Shown here: in pieces, positions 32,801-43,397 of the stretch
How the letters are laid out: each line of letters starts with the position of its first letter
How positions within the stretch are numbered: the stretch's first letter is position 1
From: Pecten maximus
Lineage: Eukaryota
Assembly: GCF_902652985.1 (NCBI RefSeq)
Contig: NC_047030.1
Coordinates: 19,902,001 to 19,966,000 of the forward strand
Direction: 5' to 3'
DNA: 64,000 nt
Program-made: the position numbers and the translations under genes
The notes under the pieces: generated by a model
Seen by the model: only the letters and a program-made list of their open reading frames with translations
What the model was told of the DNA's origin: nothing
Database searches by the model: none

Positions 32801-35800
32801 TTAGGATGTTTTTGTTCATGATTTCAAATGTTCATGTTCATTTTTCAACAGTGCATATGTTTTGTTACAATGGAAATTCTCAAAATGCAACAGAACTTTT
32901 GGAGGGCAGTGTATATAGGTAAATAGTGATTCAGTCACCCACTGACAGACCATTTCACTGCAATACTGCGAGTCTGCAGTCATCCATATTGTTAATGGTT
33001 CGTTAGATATTTTTCCTTATTAAGTCTATGCTGTTACATTTAGTGCCAGCTGGCCTCCTATTGTGATATTCTATTTTTGTTTGCCGGGATTTCTATAAAG
33101 ACAATGAGCTCTTGTTCTTCAAAAACGTAATGAATTCTAGAAATTTCTATCAATGGTTAGAGCATTATATAGATGGTTAAATTAATTCAGATGAATGTTT
33201 GACATTATAAAGGTCTCCAAGGCAGACTTGGACAAGATACAGACAGACATACTGCAGAAAGCTGTAAATGGAATGAGGGAGCGTGGTACACCTTATAAAG
33301 GTAGGGATGGAATGAGGGAGTGTGGTACACCTAATAAAGGTAGGGATGGAATGAGGGAGTAGGGTACACCTTATAAAGGTAGGGATGGAATGAGGGAGTT
33401 GGGTACACCTTATAAAGGTAGGGATGGAATGAAGGAGTGGGGTACACCTTATAAAGGTAGGGATGGAATGAAGGAGTGGGGTACACCTTATAAAGGTAGG
33501 GATGGAATGAGGGAGTGGGGTATACCTTATAAAGGTAGAGATGGAATGAGGGAGTGGGGTACACCTTATAAAGGTAGGGATGGAATGAGGGAGTGGGGTA
33601 CACCTTATAAAGGTAGGGATGGAATGAGGGAGTGGGGTACACCTTATAAAGGTAGGATGGAATGAGGGAGTGGGGTACACCTTATAAAGGTAGGGATGGA
33701 ATGAGGGAGTGGGGTACACCTTATAAAGGTAGGGGATGGAATGAGGGAGTGGGGTACACCTTATAAAGGTAGAGATGGAATGAGGGAGTGGGGTACACCT
33801 TATAAAGGTAGGGATGGAATGAGGGAGTGGGGTACACCTTATAAAGGTGAGGATGGAATGAGGGAGTGGGGTACACCTTATAAAGGTAGGGATGGAATGA
33901 GGGAGTGGGGTACACCTTATAAAGGTAGGGATGGAATGAGGGAGTGGGGTACACCTTATAAAGGTAGGGATGGAATGAGGGAGTGGGGTACACCTTATAA
34001 AGGTAGGGATGGGAATGAGGGAGTGGGGTACACCTTATAAAGGTAGAGATGGAATGAGGGAGTGGGGTACACCTTATAAAGGTAGGAATGGAATTTAAGG
34101 AGCGGGACCCAGAGGTATGTGGTATGAAATGAGAAAATAAACAAATGTCCTAAAAAGTATTACTCAAAGAAGGATAAAGGAAGTATGCAGGTGTGGAAAA
34201 ATATCAAATAAGGAATGAGAATCATTACAGAAAATGAAATTAAAAAGAGTGAACACCTTGCAGTTATTTGATAAAATAATAGCAATAGCAATAGCAGTCA
34301 TCGGTCTTCATATAAGCGTGTCCGCTTCTTGACCACCTGTTTTTATCATTCTATTTACAGTACGCATGTTCAATCATGTATCAAGTATAGTATATTCCTC
34401 ATTTAAAATATGGTAGTTCAAATTTCCTCAATACAGTCATCAAATATCATTCATAAAAGACGAATTGGAGTTTCATATTTAGACTATTAACACACCATCT
34501 GTATCTAGGGTCACAATCTTTATATACATGTATAAACTGTATAAGTAGTAGGTGTTATACAGAATATTTGGCCGGTCATTGTTTAACTAGTACACGTAGC
34601 AGGATGGGTGGAACTTGATCTCCTTGTTAGTCCAGTGCTTGTTGAGACTGCTTTTAAATGAGTTGATTGATGGTGAATTGACAACTGACGATGGTAAACT
34701 GTTCCAGTCATCAACAACTCTGGCTGGGAATGATTTTTTTCTGATGCTTAGCCTTATGTGTGGTTTTGCCAGTTTCTTATTATGTCCTCTTGTCCTGCCT
34801 TCTCCAGTTATTTGTAATATATCCTCTGAAGTCACATCCATTAAGGATTCTGAATACCTGAATCATGTCATATCTTTTCCGCCTGTACTGGAGTGATGGG
34901 AGCCCGAGGTGGCGGAGTCTTTCTGGATAAGAGAGATGAGATATATTCCTGACCAGTTTAGTAGCTCTCCTTTGGACATTCTCAATTGCTACAATGTCTT
35001 TTTTTAACTGTGGGCTCCAGACTGTAACAGCATATTCAAGTCAGGGTCTTACGAGAGATTTAAACAGGGTTGTTAACATGAATTTATCCAAATTTTCAAA
35101 TGATCTTTTGATGATGCCTAGCATGCGATTAGCTTTCTTGACACTGGATGCGACTTGTGCACTGAATTTTAGTTTTGCATCAAATAAAACACCCATAAGG
35201 GAAGTAACTCCATATAAATGTTTGATGTATGTTTGGTTGAATGTATATTTGTCCTGTAATAATCCTGAAGGCCAACACAAATATTATAGACCTTGATTAA
35301 AAGTAGGGAATGAATTTGATAGCCATTGGTTAGCACTATGACTTACCCTAATAAATATCCTCCTGGAGCAGTACTATGGAAAGGACATATGGTATGGTGT
35401 CTCCCATCTCCCTATCAGATGTGTTAACATATTTGGCAATGGCATGAGGAGAGAAAAAGTTGTGTTAGTAAATGTCAGTTAGTCAATACTGTATATTTAT
35501 TAGCCATTAATCATTGTTCTAAAATGTTATATGCCTTATCACTGACACCTTTGATGCTCCTCACAAAAAAAACAACAAACGATATTGTGTTGCTGTAATT
35601 CTGTATCTGTAATTGTTGCTTTTTCTATGTAATTTATGTACTCATAATATGCAAAAGGATGAATAAAAAGATTTCAAAACTGAAAAAAAACTCTAAAAAA
35701 TGACAAATGTTAAATAAAATCGCAACAATATAATGCTGCACTTCTTTTGAGCAGGTGTACTATATGCTGGAATAATGTTGACAGCAGATGGTCCAAAAGT

Positions 35801-38800
35801 CCTGGAGTTCAACTGTAGGTTTGGGGATCCTGAGGCACAGGTCAGCAAATATTTATTTAAACAAAATATTGAATGTTATATAGAGAAGAGATAAATTAAT
35901 GACAAAGTGAAACTATTTACAAGTACAGTCGAATCTGTCCAAACGACCATCTCTATTTAGCGACCCTCTGTTCTAAGCGACCATTTCAATTCCTCCTGAG
36001 CGTTTTCGCTCTATATTTTAACTCTATTAAGCGACCCTCTGTTTACGCGACCAGCGACCACAATTTTTCGTTCCCGTGATAAAAATAACTCTCCAGTAAG
36101 CGACCAGAAGTCTCCAAAATGCCTTACATTACCATTTTCGCCTTAATAACACCCAAGTAGTTTTACTTTTCGTGCAAAAGGACGGGAGATGAGGCGAAGT
36201 GACCATCTGAAATTCTGACGATTTTCAGGACCAAGATTTCAGGAATTAAAAAAAATATATATAAATAATTTGAAAGTAATCTCATTAACCAATGAAATAT
36301 ATTTCTCATGTTAAATCGATGTATTTTGCGATGCTGAAAGAATTTCACAAAATACATACAGTGATGAAAAATTAGCACAGTAATAATTATTAAAAACAAA
36401 ATACACAAAAAAAAAAAAAAAAAATGTTTTGTTTTATTCAATGAGGTGGTTCATTTTTCATATATATTATAAATCATTATTGCCAATTTATAAAGCGAAT
36501 AAAAAGCTTATGAACATTTATTAAATTTAAGATACCATCTCTATTAAGAGACCACTCTCCATTAAGAGACCGTTTTTCAACTTCCCTTGAGTGGTCGCTT
36601 AATACAGATTCGACTGTACATGTATGACAAAGTTTAAGTATGAACTATTTTTTATTTTGGTAATTTCTTTAGAAAATGATTAATATTTTGAGAAGAGCAT
36701 TTAAAAAAAAAAGTTTATTGTCTGTTGTCTATTTTCTAGGCTATTCTGTTGCTGATGACCTCCGACCTTTTCGACACCTGTCTTGCTTGCACAAATGGCA
36801 GCTTGAGTGACCATTGTCCAGTGTTTGACCATCAGAGCTGTGTGACTGGAATAGTACTGGCCAGTGGAGGATACCCAGGGTCCTATAAGAAAGGGATGAC
36901 CATCACAGGTATATTGTGGGTAATACTGCTATAGTTAAAGAACAGTCATTACTTATAGAGATGTTTCTCTGTTAATTTATTAAATGTATATGTAAGTAGT
37001 TTTTTTATAAATATATTACAATAATTGAGCATTATCAATATTTCAATATGTATTGAAAAACATAATTATTTACTTTCAAATATGTGTCCAAATAATGTAA
37101 ATAAATATTTGTGACATAATTGCAGTAATTATTGAAATACTGTTTATTGAAAATAACAGTTGTAAAATATAAATATTCACATGCACACAGGTTTAGACCG
37201 AGCAGAATCACATGGACTGACCGTGTTCCATGCAGGAACTGCTGGAGATGAGGACACGGTTCTGACCAATGGTGGCAGAGTCCTAGCTGTCATGGCAACC
37301 AGTCACAACTTCCGTACAGCTTGTAACCTGGCAACCCGAGGAGCTGCCCTGGTGAAATTTGATGGGGCTTACTACAGGAGGGACATAGGGTTCAAGGTGT
37401 ACGCTAGGTCAGTGTGATTTTTTAACTATCTAATTTATTCAGAGGTTGATGGAAGTTAAAACAGAATTTTGGATGGTAGAGATATCAAATTTAAACTTTT
37501 CAGATTTAGACAAGTTTGTGGAATTTGTTAAAATGTATGTAATACCTGATATGAAGAATGCTAGGCATTTTGTGTCTGGTATCTCTGATTAATTAAATGA
37601 AATTTGCCAATGTCCATTTAAATTGTTTGTTTTTAGCAAATCATGAACTCATTGTTGCTGGACTTAAAATTGCAAATAAACGAGATGTGCAGTGAATTTA
37701 ATGTTATAGTATGTAATATATGCATTGATATTATTCAAAAATTTGAATTTGTCTTATTACCTGTGGTATCAATAGTTGCCCCGAAGAGCCTGGAATGACC
37801 TATCGGGATTCAGGTGTAAACATTACTGCAGGAAATAGTCTGGTGGAGGCCATCAAGCCTCTTGCATCCATGACCAGTCGGGCTGGCTCTACCGTAAAAC
37901 TTGGAGGGTTTGGAGCACTGTTTGATATAAAGGAGGCTGGATACACAGACCCAATCCTGGTGGCTGGTACTGACGGTGTTGGTACAAAACTGAAGGTCAG
38001 TTGTATGTCAAGGTCAGTGACAATTCAAGGTAACAGACAGTTTAAGGTAATTGGCATTTCAAGGTCATAAACAATTCAAGATCACAAACTATTCAAGGGC
38101 ATTAACAATTCAAGTTCATTGGGGATTCAAGGTCACTGACAATTTATTTATAGGTTGCCAAGGATTATTAACTGGCTGTCACAGTACTAATGATATTAAT
38201 AGGGATTGAATTGGTTGCTATGTGACATTTGATATCTTTATTTCTGGTTGCCAAGGATACTGTCTGTCACAGTACTATAGGGAATGACTTTGTTGCTATG
38301 TGACATTTAAAATCTTTATTTATAGGTTGCCAAGGATACCGGCTGTTCCAGTACTATAGGGATTGACTTGGTTGCTATGTGACATTTGATATCTTTATTT
38401 ATAGGTTGCCAAGGATACCGGCTGTCACAGTACTATAGGGATTGACTTGGTTGCTATGTGCGTCAATGACATACTGGCACAGGGGGCGGAACCACTGTTT
38501 TTCCTTGACTACTTTGCCACAGGGAGACTGGATGTAAACTTGGCTAAGGATGTGATAGCTGGGATTACAAAGGGCTGTGTGGAAGCTGGCTGTTCTCTCA
38601 TAGGTATGTATACCTGTGTGGAAGCTGGCTGTTCTCTCATAGGTATGTATACCTGTGTGGAAGCTGGCTGTTCTCTCATAGGTATGTATACCTGTGTGGA
38701 AGCTGGCTGTTCTCTCATATGTGTGTGTACCTGTGTAGAAAATATAACAAAACTCAAACTGACTAATGTGAACCCAAAATATTCTTACATACTTTCTCAT

Positions 38801-43148: not shown

Positions 43149-43397
43149 AAGGACAAAGGTCACATTGTCTGATGTCAGTAAAAGGCCAAAGGTCACACAG
43201 ACTGCTGTCATAGAAAGGTCAAAGGTCACATAGGCTGATTTCATTAAAAGGTCGAAGGTCAAAACGTCTGATGTCGTTAAAAGGTCAAAGGTCACAAAAG
43301 AAAATAAGACTTGTGTCGGTAAAGGACAAAGGTCACACAGACTGTTGTCATTAAAAGGTCAAAGGTCACATAATCTGATGTCAGTGGAAGGTGAAGG
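43135..43397 (+). repeat. 33-bp degenerate repeat starting over the GART stop codon
   Basis: TCTG(G/A)TGTCAGTAAAAGG(A/C/T)CAAAGGTCACA, about 8 copies. Confidence 0.8.

Follow-up and report, generated by a model that had tools for sequence, protein, structure and literature searches.

The analyzed window is a 64,000-nucleotide (nt) stretch of the scallop Pecten maximus (contig NC_047030.1, positions 19,902,001 to 19,966,000; here G000:C16:19902001-19966000) which carries the trifunctional GART gene, the host of several tandem arrays built from the gene's own exon edges. With exon boundaries taken from protein P0004 (NCBI label: Pecten maximus GART) by tblastn and a coordinate check, 17 coding exons were placed between 26877 and 43148. 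These include exon 5, starting at 32002, and, all on the plus strand, exon 7 (33213..33300), exon 11 (37776..37995), exon 12 (38405..38603), exon 13 (39586..39834), the exon opening the formyltransferase part (41207..41343, GTNLQAL...) and the last coding exon with its TAA (42963..43148). Exon 13 is identical to P0004 over the 82-amino-acid query exon. Joints in RNA-like contigs support the exon boundaries, among them those of exons 11 and 12, the formyltransferase exon and the last exon as well as that of exon 7 (joint 33300>35755 in contigs of runs X1, X2, X4 and X12). At an assembly gap of N (40295..40394), amino acids ~655-802 (~148 residues) are absent from the window and were not recovered from the rest of G000 with the query used. 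The gap is bridged by RNA-like contigs. Compared with P0004, protein P0006, labeled Mizuhopecten yessoensis GART isoform X1, carries 14 additional residues where exons 4 and 5 meet.

Among the arrays listed in the window by Tandem Repeats Finder (TRF), four were built from the gene's own junctions, all on the plus strand, and TRF, the exon map and the contig joints together confirmed the four cases named in the original prediction (exon 7 donor, exon 12 acceptor, exon 12 donor and the acceptor at 41207). The exon 7 donor array (33268-34094; real donor after 33300) comprises 21.2 copies of a 39-base-pair (bp) unit with 96% matches, each unit consisting of 33 exon and 6 intron nt. GT is kept in 20/20 decoys, 17 of which differ from the real site by at most 0.5 bit in score; use of the first decoy would add 13 amino acids in frame, and a TAG in the next unit would place a stop in all decoys after the first. 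The exon 12 acceptor array (~38140-38460; real acceptor 38405) contains 3.3 copies of a 79-bp unit (23 intron and 56 exon nt) plus a degenerate copy at 38154, with AG kept in 2/3 decoys (present at 38154 and 38326, lost at 38247). At the exon 12 donor (array at 38575-38740; real donor after 38603), a 39-bp unit of 29 exon and 10 intron nt is repeated 4.3 times, and its decoys, in frame and stop-free, keep GT in 3/3 cases, two of them at full score. The array at the 41207 acceptor (40395-41226; 19.9 copies in 39/41-bp units) begins directly at the N gap that cuts its 5' end, so that the ~20 copies are the visible part; its 20 upstream AG copies score 3.7-7.2 compared with 7.8 at the real site. 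Over the four arrays 45 decoy GT/AG sites were counted, in line with the predicted dozens. Donor arrays start with the real site and acceptor arrays end with it, as had been claimed, because an intact exon is required.

Two further arrays had been proposed as weaker cases. At the stop codon (43122..43393, plus strand, ~8 copies of 33 bp), the coding sequence ends, stop codon included, within the first unit, which takes in the last 27 coding nt. This upholds the proposal and implies that the edge being copied can be something other than a splice site. The 17-bp TCAAGGTCA-type array after the exon 11 donor (38008..38144, plus strand) did not hold up as junction-derived: its overlap with the donor is limited to AAGGTCA (7 nt), and the motif is found genome-wide, with 229 occurrences of TCAAGGTCA/TGACCTTGA in 140 G000 loci against 16 expected (~14-fold over the Markov expectation). 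In the window, TCAAGGTCA was located at 20206-20369, 27155-27394, 38008-38144 and 43122-43393.

The contigs used to follow splicing came from six runs (X1-X5 and X12) presumed to be RNA; they contain exon-to-exon GT..AG joints and therefore hold spliced molecules. Every joint listed (15 of 32 gene-wide and 7/7 for 33100-38800) used the authentic site, including 33300>35755 (X2, X4), 37995>38405 (X2, X3, X4), 38603>39586 and the joint into 41207. Neither a decoy joint nor a new intron inside an array was present among these joints, which reflect the main product, since contigs drop rare variants and minor decoy use could escape. This bears on the suggestion that the arrays work as splice decoys or represent a stage of intron gain, the latter an outcome proposed in the available portions of two reports on such repeats (PMC3087553, PMC2812944) and one which the original prediction saw resembled here. 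An open reading frame would indeed be kept with the first decoy of exon 7 and with those of the exon 12 donor. However, the contig joints listed gave no sign of intron gain, that is, of a new intron spliced between duplicated AG and GT, unit lengths show no bias to multiples of three, and two related scallop proteins (P0005 and P0006) lack insertions at these sites, so that we consider a role of this kind very improbable. A protein labeled Mytilus edulis GART (P0019) has an 8-residue tandem duplication at the position of the scallop exon starting at 42007, which may result from an assembly error or from a gene model that ran on through an acceptor mirage.

The GART arrays are 'mirage' minisatellites, in which an exon edge is repeated in tandem together with its splice signal, an arrangement already described but not recognized in the original prediction. 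They are head-to-tail arrays which span a boundary of the host gene, their units match exons of GART itself, GT/AG is retained in many units but not in all, and the authentic site is used, splicing being normal at the level of contig joints. In amphioxus, mirages have been described in Adh3, the globins BflGb6 and BflGb9, troponin C and PGBD5 (PMC3087553, PMC3902484). As far as the available portions of these accounts go, they likewise consist of tandem exon-intron boundary copies at donors and acceptors with units of tens of bp, retained GT/AG and normal splicing. Copy number varies between haplotypes there, and intron gain was put forward as a possible outcome, while none was seen in the GART joints listed. 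The scallop differs in its bivalve host, in one array that copies a stop codon instead of a splice site, and in a frequency (3.8% of sampled junctions, see below) that was tested against a null and shows a donor bias; the accessible parts of the amphioxus accounts contain no such numbers. In human genes, donor-spanning variable number tandem repeats are known from F7 intron 7 (37 bp), CBS intron 13, LMNB2, PDGF and the interferon-inducible 6-16 gene (PMC1557585). As in the GART donor arrays, the first monomer spans the exon-intron boundary and identical decoy donors follow downstream; according to the part of the source available, the most upstream donor is used, with CBS and 6-16 using the next two as well. 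These are isolated cases, unlike GART, where a single gene bears four such arrays and half of them lie at acceptors, with decoy use judged from contigs only. Internal tandem repeats at exon-intron boundaries have also been described in human segmental duplications and linked to the tandem-duplication model of intron gain (PMC2812944). Like the GART arrays these are boundary minisatellites with ~30-bp units, but some are described, in the portion available, as creating new introns or alternative transcripts, for which no counterpart was seen in the GART joints listed. Literature searches, largely without subscription journals, returned no report of mirages in a bivalve and no comparison of donors with acceptors.

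Genes were sampled without regard to repeats by locating exons of seven Pfam families in G000. A total of 140 stretches (1.37 Mb after merging) was fetched, leaving out 19/409 hits on small contigs; paralogous exons were added by tblastn, and junctions were refined iteratively with a splice matrix trained on GART. After exclusion of two BLAST exons inside arrays and of junctions scoring below 4 bits, and with loci L148-L160 kept outside the statistics, the sample held 1,081 junctions (534 donors and 547 acceptors) and 662 arrays with a period of at least 10. Mirages, defined as arrays reaching at least 8 nt into an exon, numbered 42 (38 by this measure and four rescued by homology), 28 at donors and 14 at acceptors; dropping one doubtful 190-bp array left 41 of the 1,081 inferred junctions (3.8%). 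GART itself, picked post hoc, is high but not extreme at this rate (4/32 junctions, P ~0.03), with 4/13 intronic arrays spanning a junction where 1.38 would be expected (P=0.025, or 0.032 with the genome rate). A class I tRNA-synthetase gene region (L107-L108, G000:C3:28008500-28028499) has about six candidate mirages, more than GART. The neighboring SNF-family paralogues L039 and L040 (G000:C6) carry the same donor and acceptor mirages, and these arrays therefore predate the gene duplication or the region was assembled twice.

Mirage units range from 24 to 190 bp (n=42), and their exon share from 0.20 to 0.94 without a fixed breakpoint. The 39-bp base unit that the original prediction noted in three of the GART arrays is not special (2/42 mirages, compared with 8/430 other arrays), and an in-frame unit was rejected as well, with 14/42 being multiples of three. 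A transposon-borne satellite, whose unit would be common to unrelated loci, fits neither the GART units nor the sampled mirages, of which 1/42 had a unit match on another chromosome compared with 60/430 other arrays. Selective erosion of decoys was not seen: donor GT was retained in 402/423 and acceptor AG in 177/201 copies, at or above the crude expectation from flank identity.

Copy number can vary, a kinesin donor mirage being present in 5.7 copies on one contig (L090:5883-6187) and in 8.8 on another (L141:4386-4781) that looks allelic to it. The array neighboring this mirage differs far more in length between L090 and L141. For the amphioxus Adh3 mirage, somatic instability has reportedly been seen. 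The kinesin pair, assembled separately and with different copy number, also speaks against the view that the arrays are assembly artefacts, for which it could be said that one GART array begins at an N gap in which coding exons are lost as well and that array copy numbers come from the assembly, not from long reads. Units differ among themselves in patterned ways, 41 further mirages were found genome-wide, and an unspliced contig from another sample (X4, 38255-38437, depth 2) spans one decoy together with the real exon 12 acceptor, which argues against an artefact. We therefore regard artefacts as extremely improbable.

Whether such arrays reflect duplication aimed at junctions or the survival of arrays that leave the messenger RNA (mRNA) intact, the two alternatives raised in the original prediction, was judged against several nulls. 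Arrays are dense in introns (0.50-0.71 per kb) and nearly missing from exons, where one lies wholly within 85,099 exon bp compared with ~51 expected. A crude comparison gave 0.81/kb at 8-50 nt inside exons and 0.71/kb deep in introns (p=0.25). After correction for unit length, 42 junction-spanning arrays were observed against 26.4 expected, with donors at 28 versus 13.0 (p=2e-4) and acceptors at 14 versus 13.3. The backgrounds of these two early tests were somewhat contaminated by unmapped exons, as was that of a first GC-weighted test (weighted for guanine plus cytosine content). A cleaner set of 302 frame-compatible introns, obtained by leaving out 97/399 adjacent exon pairs that were frame-incompatible or contained N, gave 13 versus 5.6 for donors and 7 versus 5.5 for acceptors. 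When each array was placed randomly inside its own collapsed intron, 20 spanned a junction compared with 13.1 expected (donors 13 versus 6.6, p=0.013; acceptors 7 versus 6.5), and flanking arrays without the junction numbered 21 versus 12.7 on the donor side (p=0.012) and 11 versus 12.7 on the acceptor side. Exon ends are richer in GC than introns (46% versus 35%), and units of at least 38% GC are over-represented 1.5-1.8-fold. With GC weighting added to this within-intron null, donors stood at 13 versus 8.3 (p=0.07), acceptors at 7 versus 8.1, both together at 20 versus 16.4 (p=0.19) and the donor flank at 21 versus 12.8 (p=0.013). Overall, junction-spanning arrays were 1.2-2-fold above a null of random origin and survival, and acceptors remained near it throughout (0.9-1.35-fold).

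Survival bias thus mostly accounts for the pattern, as one of the two original alternatives had it. A junction-targeted duplication process is not supported, because acceptors are at the null, donor-flank arrays which do not span the junction are similarly enriched, and the stop codon is likewise copied. The mirages, likely harmless, probably arose through the ordinary local duplication that also fills the introns of this genome and persisted only where the mRNA stays intact. We infer that a duplication of 25-100 bp would arise more or less at random, with some preference for GC-richer DNA, and would then expand by slippage or unequal exchange. Copies wholly within coding sequence would be purged, and those crossing a splice junction or a stop codon would survive by placing the extra units in the intron or the 3' untranslated region. 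The spliceosome likely stays with the exon-proximal copy, through exon definition and a first-come choice of donors as in human F7, and the higher GC content of exon ends may give a modest lift.

Several points weigh against this explanation. Donors exceeded all unweighted nulls (28 versus 13.0, 13 versus 5.6 and 13 versus 6.6) and stayed above the GC-weighted ones, at 25 versus 11.4 (p=3e-4) in the first of these, with its background contaminated by unmapped exons, and at 13 versus 8.3 (p=0.07) within introns. Periods of 35-50 bp were enriched 4-fold (21 versus 5.3) in a bin chosen post hoc. The junctions were inferred by profile match and a self-trained splice matrix, not taken from annotation, and the sample is one of seven gene families in which some arrays are common to paralogues. 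Finally, symmetric tests on a second set, the 536 other arrays, returned, in sense orientation, 28 donor and 3 acceptor mirages, with 2 donor and 6 acceptor candidates as antisense controls. On known cases these tests detected 16/28 donors and 9/14 acceptors. Three of the 28 second-set donor mirages were exons already in the sample with a misplaced donor. Support from the Pfam family of the host (E at most 0.01; 6/48 alternative frames left out) was obtained for 14/28 donor, 1/3 acceptor and 0/8 antisense candidates.

The donor-over-acceptor asymmetry, about 2:1 at the mapped junctions (28:14), is reproducible within the sample, and survival leaves its cause unexplained. Four probes independent of TRF gave donor:acceptor counts of 30:16, 26:14, 26:13 and 26:9 (p=0.03, 0.05, 0.03 and 0.003), the first with a 12+8 probe and the last with a 20-nt exon-only probe (26/534 donors versus 9/547 acceptors by Fisher's test; segment-bootstrap ratio 1.5-7.7). 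A seeding of arrays by donor-like motifs anywhere had seemed indicated by GGTAAG in 'deep' arrays (18 sense versus 2.5 expected). This was a misreading, because those arrays were donor mirages of unmapped exons together with five known mirages counted from the other side; in arrays inside clean introns donor-like motifs were not enriched (6 sense and 4 antisense of 127). What remains beyond the survival explanation is a modest excess at intron 5' ends (~1.6-2-fold).

This excess could, by our own inference, stem from protection from deletion beside exons. A second account places a mutational hot zone coupled to transcription or splicing (through R-loops, repair or a pausing polymerase close to the donor) within ~50 nt of donors, where it would raise the birth or growth of arrays. 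The ~2-fold excess of donor-spanning arrays over the null, the 1.6-fold excess on the non-spanning donor flank, the lack of any acceptor excess and the probe counts for donors are all consistent with it, as is the sense-strand bias of TCAAGGTCA inside genes (82 versus 23), counts which may cluster in few arrays. Since the effect is small, weakens to p=0.07 in clean introns once GC is weighted and comes without the donor-like motif enrichment just mentioned, we consider a hot zone unlikely.

Somewhat less unlikely, though still doubtful, is that arrays are commoner near both junctions than deep in introns and that those on the acceptor side are selected against, since upstream decoy AGs or a displaced branch point would cause mis-splicing while downstream decoy donors are ignored. 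The donor:acceptor counts of 28:14 and 28:3 fit this account, and no decoy in GART's large acceptor array reaches the score of the real site. In the portions of the literature available, first-come donor choice in F7 (PMC1557585) and the reduced splicing of an NARS2 pseudoexon by a repeat that lengthens the distance from branch point to AG (PMC10078293) agree with it as well. Yet there are acceptor arrays of 40 to more than 100 units in which many decoys have the full score, erosion of decoy AGs was not seen, and acceptor counts lie at the null and not under it. Filtering of ordinary local duplications by mRNA integrity hence remains our preferred explanation for the bulk of the mirages. That minisatellite birth or survival is polarized by transcription in this scallop, with arrays piling up within ~50 nt of 5' splice sites and donor mirages consequently two- to several-fold more numerous than acceptor ones, is put forward as a tentative possibility. 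If the polarity is true, it would point to germline mutation coupled to splicing, or to selection which gauges, genome-wide, how much more harmful upstream decoy AGs are than downstream decoy GTs.

Other arrays in the window are not part of this argument. A 21-bp unit repeated 105.6 times (28657-30885) accounts for 2.2 kb of GART intron 3 and does not derive from a junction. On the minus strand, an array of 19.3 39-bp copies (55625-56380) contains CAG/GTAGGT donor-like sites, the strongest (GTAAGC) in the last copy. The array at 57398-57685 (73 bp, 3.8 copies) ends in TTCCAG/G, with CAG/GTAAAA ~36 nt further on, and is possibly the acceptor mirage of a short non-coding exon.

The repeat type itself is already known from lancelets and human genes, and it is common in this genome. 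What the scallop adds is a measured rate (~4% of junctions) and a null test in which survival covers most of the pattern. In practice, mirages can also mislead gene prediction and assembly, as illustrated by the array bordering the gap that lost GART exons. If the donor bias holds with full annotation, scallop mirages would offer numerous natural settings in which identical splice sites compete, suited to the study of position-dependent choice. Extrapolated from the 3.8% observed here, the genome would contain thousands of natural arrays of identical splice sites, in which positional splice-site choice could be tested genome-wide.

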